64,000 nt of DNA from Calditrichales bacterium (lineage in GTDB: Bacteria; Calditrichota; Calditrichia; Calditrichales; J004). The position numbers and the translations under genes are program-made. The notes below the pieces were generated by a model. It worked only from the letters and a program-made list of their open reading frames with translations. It made no database searches and was not told where the DNA came from. Numbering within the stretch: position 1 is the stretch's first letter; every line of letters starts with the position of its first letter. Below are positions 10,794 to 61,332 of this stretch, piece by piece. Where the stretch lies: NCBI GenBank assembly GCA_965267575.1, contig OZ254086.1, forward strand, positions 1,472,001-1,536,000, in the 5' to 3' direction.

Positions 10794-10841
10794 GGGTCTG
10801 GGAGTCTGGAAGTCTTGAAGTCCTGAAGTCTGGACGTCCGG
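10794..10841 (+). repeat. Octamer array (AAGTCYKG x6), left arm
   Basis: gggtctgg gagtctgg aagtcttg aagtcctg aagtctgg acgtccgg. Confidence 0.85.
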
Positions 10842-10907
10842 TCGTGAGCCTGGATTGCATCGAGGGCGCTTTGTGGAATCAGCATTGTTGTTCTTGCCAA
10901 TGAATCC

Positions 10908-10975
10908 AACGCCGAAGGCGTGACAGGATTGTAGCAAAAGCCCAACCCAATTCTTAAAATCCCGAAGGGATGAAA
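10908..10975. repeat. REP-like doublet of small hairpins
   Basis: ACGCC-GAA-GGCGT..gtag and ATCCC-GAA-GGGAT; similar copy at 13480-13547. Confidence 0.75.
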
Positions 10976-11027
10976 CAATGAACGGGCATATGCTAAAACT
11001 AAAAAAGCCCGGAAGCCGTGATCCCTT

Positions 11028-11066
11028 CAAGACTCCACGACTTCCCGACTATTGACTTCAAGACAT
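11028..11066 (-). repeat. Octamer array (CAAGACTT-like), right arm inverted relative to 10794-10841
   Basis: caagactc cacgactt cccgacta ttgactt caagacat, immediately after the OPT stop codon. Confidence 0.75.
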
Positions 11067-13025: not shown

Positions 13026-13100
13026 ATACTCTCCCAAATGTTATGGTTGAAAAATAAAGGGCTAAGTGTAAGAATTGCGGTTGAAACAGGCAAGTTCTTA

Positions 13101-13613
13101 ACCACAGAGAACGCGGAGGTTTTCACAGAGGGCACGGAGTATTTTTACTGAATGGTCTTTTTCATTTTCATTATTTTAATCTTTCTCCGTCTTTGTGGTG
13201 GTGAGAATTGAGATGGTAGGCGTAAATATGCGATTCAATCATTTTAATAATGATTATGTCCCTGACGGGACTTGTGGGGTATAGGCATTTTGCCTGTCTA
13301 CCAACATTATGCTCCTGACGGGGCCTTATTGTAACATTTAGATTAAGGGTATTTTTGAATTAGTATTCTTTCTCATTTTAATTCTCTTAATCGTTATTCG
13401 TTTTTTTGTGGTGGGAGAATGGGAACACGGAGCACACAAGTGGCGCAGATAAATCCAAAGATCTGCGATGGGTCTTTCAAACGCCGAAGGCGTGGCAGGA
13501 TTATAGCATAAGTATCCCAATATTTCTCCAAAATCGCGAAGGGATGGTATAGAGGTCGCGCCCATCCGCACCAACCCAACCATTCATTAATTCAATAATT
13601 CAACGATTCGTCA
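13101..13613. repeat. Intergenic mosaic of short repeat and palindromic elements
   Basis: CACAGAG/CACGGAG units, hexamer arrays, GTCCCTGACGGGAC and GCTCCTGACGGGGC hairpins, REP-like doublet, ATTCAAYA octamer array (13582-13613). Confidence 0.75.
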
Positions 13614-42301: not shown

Positions 42302-42366
42302 CTGCCGGGAGCAGGTTCATTCAATGCTTCGGGTATTTCTGATGAAAAATAGATAACGAAAAAGAA

Positions 42367-42421
42367 AAAGACTACCCGACATCAAGACCCCAGACCCCGG
42401 GACTTCCTGACCTCATGACCC
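42367..42421 (-). repeat. Octamer array (CAAGACYY-like x7) overlapping the mscS stop codon
   Basis: aaagacta cccgacat caagaccc cagaccc cgggactt cctgacct catgaccc. Confidence 0.75.
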
Positions 42422-45702: not shown

Positions 45703-45802
45703 GGTTGTATCATCCCCGTATGTTGTGAGCGATAGTTATCAAGAGCACCGTAAAAATAGTGAATAACGGAGATTAATAAAAGGGGGATTGTTTGCTGTGT
45801 CT

Positions 45803-45918
45803 GTCATCCCGGCCTGTCCCGATGATTTTTATCGGGGTTTGGCGGGTGAGCCAACAGCGGGATCTCCGTGGCAAGCAGAAACAACTTCTAAGCGTCATTC
45901 CCGCGCAGGCGGGAATCC
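45803..45918. repeat. Palindromic repeat cluster (GTCATCCCGG...GGGATCTCC; GTCATTCCCGCGCAGGCGGGAATCC)
   Basis: Related to 42266-42301; the second element has the ATTCCC-N8-GGGAAT form. Confidence 0.75.
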
Positions 45919-46075
45919 ACAAGGAACGCGCGTTGACCAAGTAATGCCCCCAAAGCCAGAGACCGGTCATATTGATTCCCTTTTTCACGGGAATAACAGT
46001 TTTGTGGCTTGTGATCCAGTCAAAGGGAAATTTTAGATCTTTTGTTTTGTATTGCTAAAGTATGTACTTTTCGAC

Positions 46076-46366
46076 ATGAACGGTATTAAGTTCGAGTGGG
46101 ACGAAAACAAAAACTCCCGCAATCAAAAAAAGCACAACGTCTCATTTGAAGAAGCGCGATCTGTTTTCAATGATGAAAATGCCAGGTTAATTGCGGACCC
46201 GGATCACTCTCAGGAAGAAGATAGATTCGTTTTGCTTGGCTTGAGCAGATCGTTAAGGATGCTTGTCGTCGTCCATGCGTACCGAAAAAGTGATGAAATC
46301 ATTCGAATAATATCGGCACGCAAGGCAACAAAATCTGAAAGTAAAATTTATAACCAGGGTGTTTAA
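46076..46366 (+). CDS. brnT: BrnT family toxin
   Basis: FEWDENKN..N.KKH.VSFEEA, EDRF and IRIISARKA. Confidence 0.93.
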   Translation: MNGIKFEWDENKNSRNQKKHNVSFEEARSVFNDENARLIADPDHSQEEDRFVLLGLSRSLRMLVVVHAYRKSDEIIRIISARKATKSESKIYNQGV

Positions 46367-54067: not shown

Positions 54068-54107
54068 GAGTCAGGAAGTCCGGGGGTCATGAAGTCTTGA
54101 AGTCGGG
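54068..54107 (+). repeat. Octamer array (AAGTCYKG x5), left arm
   Basis: gagtcagg aagtccgg gggtcatg aagtcttg aagtcggg. Confidence 0.8.
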
Positions 54108-54259
54108 CTGCACTGGAAGCTTAAAAGCTAGTGGTGTAAAGGTTTAAAAAAAGGCAAGAGTACAGCTTGCGGAATTTAGAAAAATCAGGGAAGAGGTGCT
54201 TAATTTCTAATTTTTGATAATGATGAAGATAATGAGAAAGAAAAGAAAAAAGCGTGTCT

Positions 54260-54339
54260 TCCGACTCAAAGACTCCAAAACCTCAAGACTTCAGGACTCC
54301 GAGACCTCACGACTACAAGACTTCAAGACTTCAAGACAT
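54260..54339 (-). repeat. Octamer array (CAAGACTT x10), right arm
   Basis: tccgactc aaagactc caaaacct caagactt caggactc cgagacct cacgacta caagactt caagactt caagacat. Confidence 0.88.
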
Positions 54340-54365
54340 CCAACCCCCGGTAATGATTGAGAGCT

Positions 54366-55006: not shown

Positions 55007-56434
55007 CTATTTCCTTTTTGGTCGATAAACGTGCGTGGCAGTGCCAAAGAACATCTCGGCGCTTTCCATGATGGTTTCGGAAATGGTCGGATGCGGGTGA
55101 ATGGAGAGTTTCACATCGCTGGCAAGCGCGGCCATTTCAACCGCCAGCACGCCTTCGGAGATGAGCTCTCCGGCCCCGGCGCCCACAATACCCATACCCA
55201 GGACGCGTTCGGTTTCCTTGTCAAAAATCAGTTTGGTCAGTCCGTCGGTGCGGTCCATGGTGATGGCACGCCCGGATGCTGCCCAGGGAAAGCGGGCTAC
55301 TTCAACATCCAATCCTTGTTCTTTGGCTTCGTTTTCGGTAATGCCGCACCAGGCCAGCTCGGGATCGGTAAAAACCACGGCCGGAATGGCGTTGGGTTCA
55401 AAAGCCACTTTTTCACCGGCGATCGTTTCCACGGCCACGTGACCCTCGTGACTTGCTTTATGCGCCAGCATTGGCTCACCGGCCACATCACCGATGGCAA
55501 ATATATTGGGCTCCGACGTGCGGCGCTGCAGATCGGTCGGGATAAAGCCTTTGTCGTCGGGCTTGATGCTGGTGTTCTCCAGGCCAATGCCTTCCGAATT
55601 GGGCTTGCGGCCGATCGACACCATCACGCGGTCGAATTTTTCTTCAACCTTGTTGCCGTCCTTTTGCTCGAATGTCACTTTAATGCCATCGGAGATTTCC
55701 TTCATCTCCACGACTTTAGTGTCCAGCATGATGTTGTGAAAACGAGATTCCAGGTTTTTGGACAGAACCTTTACCAGGTCACGGTCGGCACCCGGCAAAA
55801 GGCCCGGCATCATTTCCACCACGCTGACTTCACTGCCCAGGGCATGATAGACGCTGCCCATTTCAAGGCCGATATAGCCACCGCCGACAACCAGCAGTTT
55901 TTTAGGAATATCTTTTAAGTCAAGGGCTCCGGTGGAATTCATCACCCGTTCGGAGTCGGGGATCAGCGAAGGGATAGTAGTGGGCCGTGAACCCGTCGCG
56001 ATGATGCAATACTGAAAGGAAACCGTCTGTTCACTGCCATCCAGCAGTGTCACATTCAAACTGCCGCTGTCTTTAAACTTGGCATGCCCGCGAATATGGT
56101 TGATACCGCGCTGTTTGAGCAGTTGTCCCGTCCCACCGGTCAGCTTTTGTACGACGTTGTTTTTCCAGTCGCGCACTTTGTCCAGGTCAATTTCCGGTTT
56201 TTGAAAGGCTACGCCCCATTTATGGGACTCTTCCGCTTCATTGACCAGCTTGGCGATGTGCAGCAGCGCCTTGGAAGGAATACATCCGCGATAAAGACAG
56301 ACGCCGCCGGGGTTTTCCTCCGGGTCAACCAATGTGACATTCATTCCAAGATCCGCCGCCAGAAACGCCGCGGCATAACCACCCGGCCCGGCACCAATAA
56401 CAACGAGATTTATTCCTTTTGCTGTTTCAGACAT
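55007..56434 (-). CDS. lpdA: Dihydrolipoamide dehydrogenase (E3)
   Basis: GAGPGGY, GGVCLYRGCIPSK, GGGYIG and HPHPT. Confidence 0.97.
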   Translation of the reverse strand: MSETAKGINLVVIGAGPGGYAAAFLAADLGMNVTLVDPEENPGGVCLYRGCIPSKALLHIAKLVNEAEESHKWGVAFQKPEIDLDKVRDWKNNVVQKLTGGTGQLLKQRGINHIRGHAKFKDSGSLNVTLLDGSEQTVSFQYCIIATGSRPTTIPSLIPDSERVMNSTGALDLKDIPKKLLVVGGGYIGLEMGSVYHALGSEVSVVEMMPGLLPGADRDLVKVLSKNLESRFHNIMLDTKVVEMKEISDGIKVTFEQKDGNKVEEKFDRVMVSIGRKPNSEGIGLENTSIKPDDKGFIPTDLQRRTSEPNIFAIGDVAGEPMLAHKASHEGHVAVETIAGEKVAFEPNAIPAVVFTDPELAWCGITENEAKEQGLDVEVARFPWAASGRAITMDRTDGLTKLIFDKETERVLGMGIVGAGAGELISEGVLAVEMAALASDVKLSIHPHPTISETIMESAEMFFGTATHVYRPKRK

Positions 56435-56446
56435 CAATTTGCTCCT

Positions 56447-56869
56447 TTAAAAATCTTGATCATGATCATGTTCTTGATCGTGATCTTTTTCGGTAAGGTA
56501 TGTATCTTCCACATCTTGCACCCGATTTGCCTGAGACTTTATCAAGCCCATTAACATGGAGACAACGTCCGAGAGAATCTTTTTGCCTTTTTCAACTTCA
56601 TTATCACCGGTGACGACTATTTTAATCAGGTCCAGACATGCAGCACATTCTAAAGCCGAACCTCGTGCAATATGAAAAAAACGTATTTTATCGTCAGCAC
56701 GGTAACGGCCATTTCCTTCGGCAATGTTTAATGGTATTGAAATAGCCGCTTTGTCCAGTTGTCTTGTCAAAACAGCGGACAAATTTTCTTGCTCTTTTAG
56801 AAATTCAAAAAGCCATTTATTAAATAGGATGGCTTTTTGATAAACATTCAGTTTTTCATGGTCAAACAT
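56447..56869 (-). CDS. Four helix bundle protein (23S rRNA IVP / Avd-like family)
   Basis: EKLNVYQKA, QL.KAAISIPLNIAEG.GR and FFHIARGSALE; C-terminal DHDQEHDHDQD is encoded by the repeat. Confidence 0.92.
   Translation of the reverse strand: MFDHEKLNVYQKAILFNKWLFEFLKEQENLSAVLTRQLDKAAISIPLNIAEGNGRYRADDKIRFFHIARGSALECAACLDLIKIVVTGDNEVEKGKKILSDVVSMLMGLIKSQANRVQDVEDTYLTEKDHDQEHDHDQDF
56458..56485. repeat. 28-bp GATC hexamer repeat at the 3' end of the four helix bundle gene
   Basis: gatcatgatcatg-ttctt-gatcgtgatc. Confidence 0.88.
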
Positions 56870-56879
56870 GTTTACCTTA

Positions 56880-56907
56880 GATCATGATCATGAGCAAGAT
56901 CGTGATC
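56880..56907. repeat. 28-bp GATC hexamer repeat on the 5' flank of the four helix bundle gene
   Basis: gatcatgatcatg-agcaa-gatcgtgatc, 24/28 identical to 56458-56485. Confidence 0.88.
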
Positions 56908-56914
56908 GTGCGTT

Positions 56915-58612
56915 TCACCCTTCAAGCATAACCCTGAACGGTTCTTCCAGCACTTCACACACCCACCTCAAAAACCTGGCTGCATCCGCGCCGTCGATCA
57001 GCTTGTGATCGTAGGACAAGGCCAAAGGCATCATCAAACGCGGCTCAAACTTGCCATCAACAAATTTCGGCTCCATAGCCGCGCGTGAGACGCCCAGAAT
57101 AGCCACATCAGGTGAATTGACGATCGGTGTAAAGCCTGTGCCGCCAATGCCGCCCAGGTTGGAGATGCTGAAGTTGCCGCCCTGCATCTCTTCCAGGCTA
57201 AGCTTGCGGTCGCGTGCCTTTTTAGACATTTCGGTCAGCTCAACCGAGAGATCGATGATGTTTTTCTTTTCAACGTTTTTAATGACCGGCACAACCAGTC
57301 CGTATGGCGTATCCACAGCGATGCCGATATTAAAGTACTTCTTGTAGATAATCTCCATTTTGGACATATCCACACTGGCGTTGAACTGCGGAAATTTACG
57401 CAGAGCGGCCTCGATAACTTTTATCAGGATTGCGGTCATGGTCAGTTTACCGCCGGCGTCTTCCGCTTTTTTGCCGTTGGCTTTGCGCAGCTTTTCCAGC
57501 TCAGTGATATCAGCTTTGTCGAATTGCGTCACATGCGGGATGCTGACCCAGGCATAGCTGAGATGTTTGGCTCCCGTCTGCCGCAGTTTGGACATGCTTT
57601 CGCGCTCGGTTTCGCCCCATTTGCTGAAGTCCGGCAGCGGCTCAGCCTGAACGCCAGGTGCCATGCCGGCGCCTTTTTGCTTGTTCAGCATTTTAGCGTA
57701 CGACTTCACGTCCTCAACGGAAATGCGTCCGCCCGGGCCCGATCCCGGAACATCATGGATATCCAGCCCGATTTCGCGGGCAAAGCGGCGAACAGAAGGA
57801 GAAGCCGGTGCAAGCTTGCCGCGCTTGGGCGGTTCAAACACCTGCTGCGGCACGTCTTTGGATACGGTGGCCGCTGCTGCCGGAGAAACGTCCTTTTTCT
57901 CTTTGGCTTTTTCTTCTTTTGGCTCTTCTTTCTTTTCGGGCTTTGTTTCTTCCGCGGCTTCTTCTGTGTCCTCTTCCGGTTCAGCACCACTGGATTCGAT
58001 GACCATTACTTCCTGGTCAACAGCGACTTCGTCACCCTGGGAGACATTGATTTTTTTGATTGTACCGGCGACATCGCTGGGTACTTCTACGACCGCTTTG
58101 TCAGTTTCCAGCTCCAGCAGGCCCTGGTCCTTTTCCACGGCGTCGCCTTCACTTACAAGAATGGAAGTAACCACGCCGGATTCAATGTTGTCACCCAAAT
58201 TGGGGATCTTGAAATTAACGGTTTTGCCGGCGTCCTTGCTTTTTTTGCTTTCCTTCTTCTCTTCCTTCGCAGGCGCCTTTTCCTGTTTAGGCTCTTCGCC
58301 GGATTCCTTCTCTTCCTGCTTAGGCCTTTCTGCCTTTTCTTCCTTTTGCGCTTCTTCTTTCGCGGATCCGTCTCCGGCGCCCTCAATCTCCACGATGGCC
58401 TGGCCTACATCGACCTCATCACCTTTGGAAACAAGCACCTTCGAGATTTTTCCACTTTCCGATGCCGGAACTTCGATGACCGCCTTGTCCGTTTCCAGTT
58501 CCAGCAAGGCCTGATCTTTTTCAATAGTATCGCCTTTGGAAACAAAAACACTTACAACCGTTCCCGATTCAATACCATCACCCAGTTCAGGCAGTTTTAT
58601 TTCTTGTGCCAT
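56915..58612 (-). CDS. aceF: Pyruvate dehydrogenase E2 with two lipoyl domains
   Basis: Two LETDKA lipoyl motifs, ASPSVRRFARE binding domain, DHKLIDG catalytic motif. Confidence 0.95.
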   Translation of the reverse strand: MAQEIKLPELGDGIESGTVVSVFVSKGDTIEKDQALLELETDKAVIEVPASESGKISKVLVSKGDEVDVGQAIVEIEGAGDGSAKEEAQKEEKAERPKQEEKESGEEPKQEKAPAKEEKKESKKSKDAGKTVNFKIPNLGDNIESGVVTSILVSEGDAVEKDQGLLELETDKAVVEVPSDVAGTIKKINVSQGDEVAVDQEVMVIESSGAEPEEDTEEAAEETKPEKKEEPKEEKAKEKKDVSPAAAATVSKDVPQQVFEPPKRGKLAPASPSVRRFAREIGLDIHDVPGSGPGGRISVEDVKSYAKMLNKQKGAGMAPGVQAEPLPDFSKWGETERESMSKLRQTGAKHLSYAWVSIPHVTQFDKADITELEKLRKANGKKAEDAGGKLTMTAILIKVIEAALRKFPQFNASVDMSKMEIIYKKYFNIGIAVDTPYGLVVPVIKNVEKKNIIDLSVELTEMSKKARDRKLSLEEMQGGNFSISNLGGIGGTGFTPIVNSPDVAILGVSRAAMEPKFVDGKFEPRLMMPLALSYDHKLIDGADAARFLRWVCEVLEEPFRVMLEG

Positions 58613-58653: not shown

Positions 58654-61332
58654 TTAGCTGAACCACGGGTTTGGTTTCTCCGGATCGATATCCATATCCT
58701 TGATCGCCTTTGTTACATCCGATCCCTTCAGGTCGCCTTTTTGCGCCAGCAGGTTTAGGGCGGCCAGTACGACATAGCGCTCGTCCACTTCAAAGAAATT
58801 ACGCAGCTGATTGCGTCCGTCGCTGCGCCCGAATCCATCGGTTCCCAGCGCCGCAAACGGTCCCGGCACCCATTTGGCGATGGACAACGGCAATGCCTTT
58901 ACATAATCGGAAGCGGCCACATAAACGCCCTCACTGCCATCAAGTACTTCCTCTATATATGCTTTCTTCTGCTTTTTCGTCGGATTGAACATGTTCCAGC
59001 GATCAGCCTGTGTGGCGTCCACGTGCAGTTCTTTGTAGCTGGTAACGCTGTAGATATCGGCGGCAATGTCAAATTTATCTTCCAGCATTTCCTGCGCCTT
59101 CACCACGCAGTTCATAATCGTTCCGCTGCCAAACAGGTTTACCTGCATTTTGGCTTTCTTCTTTTTGGAAGCGCGGAACTTGTACATTCCTTTGACGATG
59201 CCTTCCTTCACCTCTTTGCCTTTGGGCATTTCCGGCTGCTTGTAGTTTTCATTCATCACCGTGAGATAATAGAAAACGTTTTCATGTTTCTCGTACATGC
59301 GCTCGATGCCGTCACGGATCAGCACAGCCAGTTCGTAGGCGAATGCCGGGTCATAGGCTTTCAGGTTGGGATAGGGGTAAAGCATCAGGTGACTGTTGCC
59401 GTCCTGGTGCTGCAGGCCCTCGCCGGCCAGCGTTGTGCGTCCGGATGTGGCGCCCAGCAGGAAGCCTTTGGCGCGCATATCCCCGGCCGCCCAGATCAGG
59501 TCGCCAATGCGCTGTACCCCAAACATGGAGTAGAATATGAAAAAGGGAATGGCGTTAATGCCATGCAGCGAATAAGCTGTACCCGCTGCCGTGAAAGACG
59601 ACATTGATCCGGCTTCGGTGATTCCTTCTTCCAGGATCTGGCCGTTTTTAGCTTCTTTATAATAAAGCAGGCTCTCTTTGTCCACCGGCTCATAAAGCTG
59701 GCCGCCGTGCGCATAAATACCCACCTGGCGGAACAGCGATTCCATACCAAAGGTGCGCGCTTCATCGGGCACAATCGGTACAATGTTTTTACCGATTTCC
59801 TTGTCACGCAGCAACTTGGACAGCAGGCGCACAAAAACCATCGTCGTGGAGGCCTCGCGGTCTCCCGTGCCTTCGTAAAACTCTTCGAAAATGCTTTCAT
59901 CCGGAGTTTTCAGGGCACCTGGGGCTTGCTTTTTGCGCTGCGGCATGTAGCCGCCTAGCTGCTTGCGGTGCTCCTTCATATATTGCATCTCCGGGCTGTC
60001 TTCGTCCGGCTTGTAGAAAGGAATATCGTCGATTTTTTCGTCAGAAATCGGAATACCGAAACGGCTGCGGAAAGTACGCAGTTCCTGTTCGTTCAGTTTT
60101 TTCTGCTGGTGGGTTATGTTTTTGCCTTCGCCCGCTTCGCCAAGGCCGTAGCCTTTTACAGTGCGCGCCAAAATCACGGTGGGTGCTCCCTTGTGCTTTA
60201 CCGCCGCGCTGTATGCCGCGTAAACTTTTTCCGGATCGTGGCCGCCCAGACGCAGACGCTCAAGCTGCTCATCGGACATGTGCTCAACCATTTTCAGCAG
60301 CTGCGGGTACTTGCCCCAGAAGTGCTGACGGATATAAGCGCCGCCCTTAACGCTGTAATTCTGATATTCACCGTCGACAACCTCGGCCATACGCTTGACG
60401 AGCAAGCCTTCCTTATCCTGTGCCAGCAACGGATCCCAGTCTTTACCCCAGACAATCTTAATGACGTTCCAGCCGGCGCCGCGGAAAACGCGCTCTAGCT
60501 CCTGGATGATTTTACCGTTGCCGCGTACCGGGCCGTCCAGACGCTGCAGGTTACAGTTAATTACAAAAATCAGGTTGTCCAGCTGTTCCCGTGTGGCCAG
60601 CGAGATAGCGCCCAGTGTTTCCGGTTCGTCCGTTTCACCGTCACCCAGGAATGCCCACACTTTTTCATCACCCTTGGGTTTCAGGCCGCGGTCTTCCAGG
60701 TAGCGGTTAAAACGCGCCTGGTAAATGGCCATAATCGGACCCAGGCCCATAGACACAGTCGCAAACTGCCAGAAATCGGGCATCAGCCAGGGGTGTGGAT
60801 AGGAAGACAGTCCGCCATTGGGGTGTGTTTCGTGGCGGAAATTTTTGAGCTGCTCCATCGATATGCGTCCTTCCAGGAAGGCGCGGGCGTAAATACCGGG
60901 TGAGGCGTGGCCCTGGAAGTAAACGGCATCACCGCTGAAGTTATCCGACGGGGCGCGGAAAAAATGGTTAAAGCCTATTTCATAGAGCGTGGCCGCGGAG
61001 GCGTAGGTGGAAATGTGTCCGCCAATCCCGGCCTCATGTTTGTTGGCCCGCACAACCATGGCCATGGCGTTCCAGCGGATAAGGCTTTTTATACGCCGCT
61101 CGATTTCCCGGCTGCCGGGGAAGTTAGGCTGCTCTTCCGGCGGAATGGTGTTGATATAAGGCGTGTTGGCGGAAAAAGGCATTTTGATGCCTTCGTAATG
61201 GGCGCGGCTCTGCAGGGCTTGCAGCAAAGACGTGGCGCGCTGCGAGCCACCTTCCTGAATCACGTAGTCAAGCGATTCAAGCCACTCCTGAAGTTCTATT
61301 TCTTCTATAGTTTTATTGTTTTGTTGACTCAT
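58654..61332 (-). CDS. aceE: Pyruvate dehydrogenase E1, homodimeric type
   Basis: GGHISTYAS, FQGHASPG, GDGETDEPE, NCNLQRLDGPV and GEGLQHQDG. Confidence 0.97.
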   Translation of the reverse strand: MSQQNNKTIEEIELQEWLESLDYVIQEGGSQRATSLLQALQSRAHYEGIKMPFSANTPYINTIPPEEQPNFPGSREIERRIKSLIRWNAMAMVVRANKHEAGIGGHISTYASAATLYEIGFNHFFRAPSDNFSGDAVYFQGHASPGIYARAFLEGRISMEQLKNFRHETHPNGGLSSYPHPWLMPDFWQFATVSMGLGPIMAIYQARFNRYLEDRGLKPKGDEKVWAFLGDGETDEPETLGAISLATREQLDNLIFVINCNLQRLDGPVRGNGKIIQELERVFRGAGWNVIKIVWGKDWDPLLAQDKEGLLVKRMAEVVDGEYQNYSVKGGAYIRQHFWGKYPQLLKMVEHMSDEQLERLRLGGHDPEKVYAAYSAAVKHKGAPTVILARTVKGYGLGEAGEGKNITHQQKKLNEQELRTFRSRFGIPISDEKIDDIPFYKPDEDSPEMQYMKEHRKQLGGYMPQRKKQAPGALKTPDESIFEEFYEGTGDREASTTMVFVRLLSKLLRDKEIGKNIVPIVPDEARTFGMESLFRQVGIYAHGGQLYEPVDKESLLYYKEAKNGQILEEGITEAGSMSSFTAAGTAYSLHGINAIPFFIFYSMFGVQRIGDLIWAAGDMRAKGFLLGATSGRTTLAGEGLQHQDGNSHLMLYPYPNLKAYDPAFAYELAVLIRDGIERMYEKHENVFYYLTVMNENYKQPEMPKGKEVKEGIVKGMYKFRASKKKKAKMQVNLFGSGTIMNCVVKAQEMLEDKFDIAADIYSVTSYKELHVDATQADRWNMFNPTKKQKKAYIEEVLDGSEGVYVAASDYVKALPLSIAKWVPGPFAALGTDGFGRSDGRNQLRNFFEVDERYVVLAALNLLAQKGDLKGSDVTKAIKDMDIDPEKPNPWFS

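Follow-up and report, generated by a model that had tools for sequence, protein, structure and literature searches.

The 64-kb window analysed here (the whole stretch of 64,000 nucleotides from contig OZ254086.1 of a Calditrichales bacterium) contains a small four-helix-bundle gene of the PF05635 family between aceF and lpdA of the pyruvate dehydrogenase (PDH) operon. This gene, together with the repeats that flank it, is very probably a member of a widespread class of cassettes of the intervening sequence (IVS) type. Judging from the sequences compared, the class can be defined as a promoter-less PF05635 gene in a unit of 450-480 bp, bounded by two periodic and complementary arms of about 30 nucleotides (nt), which fills the spacer between co-transcribed genes; such a putatively stem-enclosed unit recurs between core genes in many bacterial phyla. 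The assignment is carried by the anatomy of the unit, its recurrence, the co-variation of its arms, its operon contexts and the purifying selection acting on its open reading frame (ORF). Overall, the explanation that fits best, with slightly better than an even chance of being right, is a stem-enclosed PF05635 cassette of the IVS type that has long been resident in the PDH operon. The gene in the window appears to be one instance of a general, undescribed property of a very large protein family.

Periodic and complementary arms of PF05635 loci

A scan of species-representative genomes matched at least 605 stretches; at least 580 of these passed confirmation, and the 80 best served as comparison loci (the genome of the window itself not being among them). 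Arms were scored in a set of 78, namely the window and the 77 loci whose two flanks each measured at least 110 nt, leaving out three loci with short flanks and a second weak match in L005. To score complementarity, the upstream 100 nt and the reverse-complemented 3'-end region were aligned locally; these alignment scores replaced RNAduplex flank energies because GC content dominated the latter, shuffled and control flanks already reaching -50 to -63 kcal/mol. Nearly every gene was found to possess a run such as cttaatcttaatcttactc upstream and its complement, gattaagattaagagtaag, at the gene end or after it. The median complementarity score was 20.2 between the two flanks of the same locus, compared with 9.0 between flanks of different loci (own versus other, p = 1e-22), 7.0 after shuffling and 7.5 for the flanks of control ORFs, the 99th percentile of which (13.4) was exceeded by 63 of the 78 loci.

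The arms are built of hexamers. A strict scan for four GANNAN hexamers, or for the complement of such a run, with at least 11 of the 12 fixed positions matching, retrieved 235 arrays in 781 kb, versus 2 in block-shuffled DNA. Among the 74 loci with full flanks, 51 had a pyrimidine-type array upstream and a purine-type GANNAN array at or after the stop codon, the rest having the opposite polarity only (6), one arm (12) or none (5). Positions 1, 2 and 5 of the hexamer were the search criterion and positions 3 and 4 were free; the resulting consensus was G-A-K-Y-A-N, with K at position 3 in 85% and Y at position 4 in 82%. The commonest hexamers were GATTAA (223), GAGTAA (104), GATTAC (97) and GAGCAA (92), and those bearing GATC were far rarer (GATCAA, 42; GATCAG, 28; GATCAC, 18; GATCAT, 15). 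Hence GATC, and with it Dam methylation, is incidental to the copy in the window, and a role for GATC is not supported, most arms being of the GATTAA, GAGTAA or GAGCAA types.

Gene-flanking arms consisted mostly of five (56 arms) or six units (39 arms), with a detection floor of four hexamers, and had a median length of 31 nt, with a median gap of 12 nt between arm and ATG. In 36 of 63 cassettes, the first nucleotides of the 3' arm lay within the ORF or its stop codon. The whole unit, typically about 450-480 bp long (family median 480 bp), started at a median of 14.5 nt past the upstream stop codon and ended 11 nt before the next start. At many loci, the 3' run held an in-frame TAA or TAG and would read D*D*E*D* if translated through, which indicates that the arm supplies the stop codon of the gene. 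When the hexamers are of the GAKCAY kind, the ORF reads through the arm and gains a tail of His, Gln, Asp and Glu, as in the window, whose His/Asp tail is, as read from the DNA, the 3' arm in translated form.

Arm types differed among loci (GATTAA, GAGCAA, GAGCAC, GAAAAA, GTGAAA and GAATAC), and each upstream arm nevertheless fitted its own partner best. This was also the case within groups that share an insertion site and hence their origin, namely the gap-pgk group (own 21.75 versus cross 14.0, p = 0.002), the gyrB-gyrA group (p = 0.003) and, with three loci and a nominal p of 0.02, the aceF-lpdA group; it was not seen in two closely related groups, M19-MBL and PQQ. Furthermore, the order of hexamer variants matched the partner better than permuted orders did (mean z 0.72, Wilcoxon p = 2e-4, for the 36 of 78 loci with heterogeneous arms). 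Mismatches between arms were periodic as well: they were most frequent at hexamer position 6 (28%), less so at positions 3 and 4 (15-17%) and rare at positions 1, 2 and 5 (1-3%).

The cassette between aceF and lpdA

The features of the locus are as follows, in window coordinates.

58654-61332, minus strand: aceE, a gene of the PDH operon
56915-58612, minus strand: aceF (pyruvate dehydrogenase E2), the upstream host gene, with the Pfam domains 2-oxoacid_dh, Biotin_lipoyl and E3_binding
56917-56915, minus strand: TGA stop codon of aceF
56880-56907, minus strand: 5' arm, GATCACGATCTTGCTCATGATCATGATC, starting 7 nt past the aceF stop codon
56870-56879, minus strand: leader of 10 nt, TAAGGTAAAC, with AAGG within it, joining the 5' arm to the ATG
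56447-56869, minus strand: four-helix-bundle ORF of 140 aa, of the 23S rRNA IVS protein / Avd fold family
56458-56485, minus strand: 3' arm, GATCACGATCAAGAACATGATCATGATC, within the ORF and translated as DHDQEHDHDQ
56442-56449, minus strand: TAA stop codon of the cassette (56449-56447) and adjoining AGGAG (56446-56442), the Shine-Dalgarno sequence of lpdA
55007-56434, minus strand: lpdA (E3), the downstream host gene, with its ATG at 56434 and the Pfam domains Pyr_redox_2 and Pyr_redox_dim
Next listed after lpdA, minus strand: HlyIII-family gene

The initial annotation, made from the DNA letters alone, had described an AT-rich four-helix-bundle gene interrupting the aceF-lpdA junction, two GATC-rich repeats around it and an intact ribosome-binding site of lpdA, and these descriptions held. 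The GC content of the cassette, which spans 450 bp, is 0.355-0.41, compared with 0.50-0.57 in aceF and lpdA. The upstream repeat copy reads GATCACGATC-TTGCT-CATGATCATGATC (56907-56880) and the downstream copy GATCACGATC-AAGAA-CATGATCATGATC (56485-56458), so that the two 28-nt repeats are 24/28 identical as direct repeats, with differences confined to a 5-nt core. Shuffled sequence was expected to yield 0.00 matches to the 28-nt pattern; for GATCRTGATC, 7 matches were found versus 0.19 expected. As an inverted repeat, the arms form 23 Watson-Crick pairs out of 28 (counted by hand), and an inverted-repeat search returned 22 nt, 91% complementary and 404 nt apart. Read on the other strand, the 5' arm consists of five hexamers of the GAKYAN type. 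The ORF ends in KDHDQEHDHDQDF*, which includes the arm-encoded DHDQEHDHDQ, and the AGGAG sequence lies 7 nt upstream of the lpdA ATG. A 475-aa form of the lpdA product was present in the protein collection, and the named relatives of LpdA with 68-75% identity belonged to Calditrichia, Calditrichota or KSB1, which makes the host an environmental bacterium of the Fibrobacterota-Chlorobiota-Bacteroidota (FCB) group.

Among the 56 ORFs of the window, a domain search recognised neither another PF05635 gene nor any reverse transcriptase, integrase or transposase, and tandem and direct repeat scans found no template/variable repeat pair near the gene. Similarly, no rRNA match was found in 56300-57050, the cassette lying between aceF and lpdA, outside rRNA helices. 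Rfam 15 gave no match in this region, even at E-values up to 10, nor in 13 loci covering 131 kb.

The encoded protein

The product of the ORF matched PF05635 (E = 1e-20; 74.4 bits, cut-off 33.8) and TIGR02436, 'four helix bundle protein' (E = 4.2e-20; 72 bits, cut-off 24). Its AlphaFold model (pLDDT 84.7) comprises helices at residues 4-25, 32-52, 58-85 and 90-123, followed by the His/Asp tail (residues 122-138), which is predicted to be disordered. Foldseek aligned the model with XCC0516 (2gsc; TM 0.82-0.86), BT_0352 (2rld; TM about 0.84) and the accessory protein Avd of diversity-generating retroelements (DGRs; 4dwl and 8ub7, TM about 0.8). The homologue structures 2gsc and 2rld contain five chains each. 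Prediction of a four-copy complex of residues 1-121 scored 0.16, against a mark of 0.42, and counts as evidence neither for nor against such a complex.

A protein search restricted to near-length matches retrieved 5140 relatives. The closest, P0002, is 89% identical over the first 78% of the protein, and its C-terminus reads like the +1 frame of the gene in the window, so that it is probably a frameshifted copy. The collection that holds P0002 contained no LpdA with more than 75% identity, which suggests that the host of P0002 may not be a close relative. All other relatives were at most 59% identical and came mostly from Verrucomicrobiota, Kiritimatiellota, Planctomycetota and Lentisphaerota; several of those that are about 50% identical terminate in (D/E)(H/Q/Y) runs. 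P0003, P0004 and other matches of 241-245 aa carry two PF05635 domains in tandem, at about twice the usual length.

Genomic contexts

Based on crude ORF picks, 69 of 78 upstream neighbours and 56 of 75 downstream neighbours were co-oriented with the cassette. The following junctions were named by a Pfam search of the neighbouring genes.

gap-pgk: 12 loci
gyrB/Toprim, then a gyrA-type subunit: 4 loci
peptidase M19, then a beta-CASP hydrolase: 5 loci
PQQ-repeat genes: 5-7 loci
livG-livF: 3 loci
gmk-coaBC: 2 loci
aceF-lpdA: the window, L037 (Ignavibacteria) and L077 (Melioribacteraceae), the latter two being Ignavibacteriota with a cassette at the site of the window
further junctions: nuoD-nuoE, argB-argD, HlyD-AcrB and rpoB (the last with rpoB as upstream gene only)

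A search of plasmids gave two matches, both cyanobacterial (L081, 2412-2834; L082, 2435-2892), and both copies have complementary arms, which are purine-rich upstream and have motifs other than GAKYAN. One lies between cas10/cmr2 and cmr3, with arms of 29 nt that are 79% complementary; the Nostoc plasmid copy has (GGGAAAA)n arms of 31 nt that are 94% complementary. The former agrees with an earlier report of a PF05635-family gene between cmr genes (PMC3936711). The listing of PF05635 as 'CRISPR-associated' could be read more simply as an insertion at cmr2-cmr3 like that at aceF-lpdA. No tblastn match was found in phage genomes, and there was no match to PADLOC or PHROGs.

Indications of spread and decay among the cassettes

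The spacing of 128 consecutive arm pairs of opposite type was bimodal: 57 pairs lay 360-480 nt apart and enclosed the gene, and 35 were separated by no more than 150 nt. Some of the short pairs, such as those that follow pgk in L004 and L036, are nothing but a hairpin with a loop of 12-21 nt; others retain the leader together with codons from the beginning (MFDHEKL..) and the end of the gene (L065, 7277-7466; L078, 5516-5668). The latter are, from their sequence, best described as internal-deletion derivatives. Gene-less relatives of the cassette, postulated by the initial annotation, thus exist in related loci. In L017 (5689-6805), complete hairpins stand on either side of the gene in place of a single one around it, and the same locus has three tandem deletion derivatives, each with a leader and a start codon.

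Closely related copies occurred at different junctions in Ignavibacteriota. In addition, L008 contained a direct duplication of 43-48 nt (713-760 and 1231-1278), 95% identical and hugging both arms. It covers the end of a permease gene, a spacer of 3 nt and the first nine codons of the next gene, and the upstream duplicate leaves a 10-codon stub of the downstream gene that is terminated by the TAA of the arm. Taken together, the distribution, the deletion derivatives and this one fresh target duplication suggest that the family has spread to new sites. In the window, the end of aceF and the start of lpdA (TTGAAGGGTGAAAC-GCA and TTGATGTCTGAAACAGCA) resemble each other with a score of 8.5, below the cross-locus 95th percentile of 10, a similarity that is suggestive by its position and is not significant.

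Age and selection at the aceF-lpdA site

In a quick tree of 80 proteins, which omits L034 (early stop codon), groups sharing the same site mostly formed one branch each (gap-pgk, M19-MBL, gyrB-gyrA, gmk-coaBC and DMFA2), and the protein of the window had a very long branch. In a hand-picked set of 33 proteins, it grouped with copies from the FCB phyla with a support of 56, and a single origin of the three aceF-lpdA copies was not rejected (approximately unbiased test, p-AU 0.535). LpdA of the window is 65% identical to that of L037 and 67% to that of L077, the cassette proteins being about 48% identical. Within same-site groups, dN/dS of the ORF was 0.09-0.30, with dS near saturation and usable pairs numbering only 12 of 55, 1 of 6, 3 of 6 and 2 of 3; these ratios place the ORFs under purifying selection.

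On these comparisons, the copy in the window is most simply read as an old insertion, vertically inherited with a working ORF, and recurrent insertion at a preferred site may be the alternative to descent. For an old resident copy, the low GC content is a property of the unit and no mark of recent import. The proposal of the initial annotation, a transposase-free mobile cassette or an mRNA IVS, is therefore borne out in part. Its core agrees with a recurrent unit of IVS layout, with arms able to pair around the ORF, and with the periodic flanks present on paralogues, so that the flank-less paralogues considered as a counter-case were not what was found. The recent insertion that it implied does not agree with a site that is occupied in two Ignavibacteriota as well, and stable inheritance may hold.

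Proposed pairing of the arms and alternative explanations

The arms of the window pair over long range in the minimum-free-energy fold of a 501-nt region, with z = -4.0 on each strand. The proposed mechanism consists of pairing in RNA, processing and protein binding, all of which, like mobility, are inferred. The cassette would be transcribed together with aceE-aceF-lpdA, after which the arms would pair into an imperfect stem and loop the ORF out of the operon transcript, so that no more than some 30 nt would separate the aceF stop codon from the lpdA ribosome-binding site. That the arms act by such pairing in RNA has perhaps not quite an even chance. By analogy with the ORF-bearing IVS of 23S rRNA, the stem could be a substrate of RNase III, a processing step that is proposed tentatively and is more doubtful than the pairing. 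The encoded protein might finally bind the stem, by analogy with Avd, with the periodic mismatches as contact points.

Several observations weigh against this interpretation. The complementarity of 15 of the 78 loci lay below the threshold, and the control flanks defining it came from 738 mechanical ATG-to-stop ORFs of the comparison loci, not from curated genes. The order-specific signal is modest, and much of the excess of own over cross scores could reflect shared hexamer composition. The 63 arm pairs contained 38 G-U and 35 A-C oppositions, besides 131 other mismatches or transversions; this lack of a G-U excess counts against a stem in the sense RNA, because selection on such a stem should favour G-U. 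In the window, three of the five mismatches are A-C on the sense strand, which makes an antisense fold at least as good as the sense one. Each arm of the window can also form a local hairpin, a trait of GATC-type arms that is absent from the GATTAA type, so that long-range pairing is not forced there. The wobble test leans slightly against a model confined to sense RNA. As to mobility, for which the evidence is indirect, target duplication was absent in 62 of 63 loci, with L008 as the only exception, and the mostly monophyletic same-site copies indicate, in the tree, long residence rather than frequent movement. For selection, the few usable dN/dS pairs count on the same side.

L015, L026, L046 and L068 have a three-arm layout: the gene lies between a pyrimidine arm and a purine arm, and 1-19 nt after the latter comes another pyrimidine arm. 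In these loci, the purine arm would be able to pair with either of the other two, which makes an alternative-structure switch possible.

Instead of acting in RNA, the arms might act in DNA, as terminal inverted repeats that are two copies of a periodic binding site for one protein, encoded by the cassette or by the host; their likeness would then stem from this shared ligand and not from pairing, the unit being moved by a trans-acting enzyme through cut-and-paste or with the help of a reverse transcriptase. Such an element is unlikely, although it would account for several findings. The lack of a G-U bias fits a strand-symmetric constraint; the near invariance of hexamer positions 1, 2 and 5 and the limitation of positions 3 and 4 to K and Y look like a recognition code; the deletion derivatives resemble miniature inverted-repeat transposable elements (MITEs); and both the target duplication of L008 and the close Ignavibacteriota copies at differing sites agree with it. 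It has to contend with a 64-kb window devoid of transposase, integrase and reverse transcriptase genes, with arms that vary greatly in sequence while the protein stays about 50% identical, with a mirrored hexamer order exceeding permuted orders, which a pure binding-site model does not require, and with the 62 loci lacking a target duplication. The direct-repeat reading of the initial annotation, and with it a transposon whose ends are marked by direct repeats of 28 bp or by a duplicated target site, can hardly be upheld. The 24/28 identity of the two copies speaks for it, but the direct-repeat score between family flanks is at background (median 7.5, versus 20.2 for the inverted score), which already contradicts it. 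The window alone has high scores in both orientations (direct, 18; inverted, 17), since GATCAT is identical to its reverse complement and an inverted pair built from it reads as a direct pair too.

Domestication offers another explanation, in which the gene would be a fixed small regulator or RNA chaperone, setting for instance the E2:E3 ratio, and the arms a signal for mRNA processing, stabilisation or coupling. The occupied aceF-lpdA site in the window, L037 and L077, with LpdA proteins 65-67% identical, the single origin that was not rejected, the monophyly of same-site groups, the low dN/dS, the co-orientation with neighbouring genes and a stop codon abutting the lpdA Shine-Dalgarno sequence are all compatible with it. 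It is nonetheless improbable, given that the cassette occurs at many unrelated junctions (gap-pgk, gyrB-gyrA, livG-livF, cmr2-cmr3, nuoD-nuoE and others), that decayed and empty copies are common, and that the nearest relative, P0002, has a frameshifted tail. An explanation in terms of the protein alone, with the His/Asp tail serving for example in metal binding and the upstream copy being a chance or relic duplication, is very improbable. It draws on the (D/E)(H/Q) runs at the ends of several relatives of about 50% identity, but in most loci the periodic DNA follows the stop codon or holds an in-frame TAA or TAG and is non-coding, GATTAA and GAGTAA outnumber all other hexamers, disorder is predicted for the tail, and the upstream complement, present in 51 of 74 loci, already contradicts it. 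Finally, an orphan avd gene left behind by a DGR would agree with the fold (TM about 0.8 to 4dwl and 8ub7) and with PF05635 being the commonest accessory family in DGR loci (PMC10053308). The window has neither a reverse transcriptase nor a template/variable repeat pair and the 80 relatives lie next to housekeeping genes, which leaves this origin barely credible.

A more far-reaching reading can also be put forward. The PF05635 protein and the periodic arms could form a self-contained module in which a pentameric ring reads the five or six evenly spaced units of the arm stem or of one arm by itself, much as Avd holds its RNA stem-loop. The resulting ribonucleoprotein would be the form in which a selfish element without a transposase operates, settling where transcription is heaviest and loss is least tolerable, in rRNA helices and core-operon junctions. 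This reading is distinctly unlikely as formulated. Such a module could move by RNA copying, with a reverse transcriptase provided in trans, leaving long and variable target duplications such as that of L008 (43-48 nt). ORF-bearing rRNA intervening sequences have been unexplained since 1993; the module, if real, would explain them and would make the Avd protein of DGRs a recruited member.

Other features of the window

Period-8 arrays, (GAAGTCNN)n, are present at 10801-11052, 54075-54340 and 42352-42414 (15 matches to the pattern versus 0.04 expected). They form inverted pairs that enclose about 165-185 nt without a gene, and one more copy stands alone. An A/G-rich hexamer run directly precedes a GACTYC arm at 54216-54251 and 42352-42375. 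The initial annotation took these arrays for empty relatives of the cassette; as their period and motif differ and their spacers are unalignable, they were not counted as such, sharing with it the architecture of periodic inverted arms.

The intergenic region 13038-13600 contains two similar T-rich stretches (13152-13187 and 13363-13392), each following 'tattttt..' and reading as short, very hydrophobic peptides (MVFFIFIILIFL.. and VFFLILILLIVI..). Elsewhere, a small unassigned ORF (45788-46036) is followed by one that carries a BrnT ribonuclease toxin domain (46052-46366), and the two look like a type II toxin-antitoxin pair.

Comparison with known systems

PF05635 is a very large family, first discovered in rRNA intervening sequences and still without an assigned function. 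The stem-enclosed layout outside rRNA turns a scattered 'hypothetical protein' into a defined unit with arms, ORF, junction and empty derivatives. If the arms are processing or protein-binding sites, they would represent a widespread, unrecognised layer of operon architecture in the Planctomycetota-Verrucomicrobiota-Chlamydiota and FCB phyla and in cyanobacteria. No published account of periodic complementary arms or of operon-junction cassettes was found for PF05635, in a literature search with little coverage of subscription journals.

Among DNA elements, transposons and MITEs share the terminal inverted repeats with the cassette, and the short arm pairs, which keep only the unit ends, first and last codons included, are MITE-like. 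The full cassette differs in having no known transposase and in showing a target duplication, of 43-48 nt, at 1 of 63 loci. Repetitive extragenic palindromic (REP) sequences and REPINs with their RAYT genes are similar too, a gene being flanked by inverted short repeats and gene-less copies forming hairpins elsewhere in the genome; RAYT is a Y1 transposase, unlike the four-helix-bundle protein, and the arms of the cassette are periodic and vary among loci. An integron cassette does not match, as there are arms on both sides, no integrase and neighbours that are operon genes, the attC consensus itself not having been scanned for. As to the reading of repeated motifs, TRAP and HutP are oligomeric rings that recognise evenly spaced short motifs, one per subunit. 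The resemblance is an analogy only, with five or six hexamers per arm against a pentamer, an unrelated fold and a hypothetical binding of the cassette protein.

With Avd, the protein of the window shares the four-helix-bundle fold (TM about 0.8), the solved relatives being pentamers. Within the ribonucleoprotein of DGRs, Avd touches an imperfect RNA stem-loop of 11 bp with each of its five protomers, by way of flipped-out bases that lodge between them, and the DGR RNA has its template bracketed by a long-range duplex (bioRxiv 10.1101/2023.10.23.563531). The gene of the window differs by having no reverse transcriptase, template or variable repeat nearby, and its sequence relation to Avd is at the family level only.

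The closest likeness in layout is to the 23S rRNA IVS of Leptospira and Coxiella, with which the cassette shares a PF05635 protein, a matching size, complementary termini that can form a stem of about 28 bp around the ORF and short tandem repeats before the ATG. The Coxiella IVS is described as 428-444 nt long, with a 28-bp terminal stem, an S23p ORF in the loop, excision by RNase III and tandem heptamers before the ATG, and the same paper relays an older idea that the ORF of the IVS served mobility (PMC4990558). Members of the family are also reported from rRNA insertions of Candidate Phyla Radiation bacteria (PMC11270868). The sites of IVS are helices 9, 25 or 45 of 23S rRNA, whereas the cassette of the window occupies a spacer between protein genes of an operon; its family has hexamer-periodic arms and an ORF under purifying selection, in contrast to the decaying ORF of the Coxiella IVS. 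Since protein family and terminal stem agree and the rRNA site does not, the cassette is not filed as a member of the rRNA IVS and is instead regarded as working like one.

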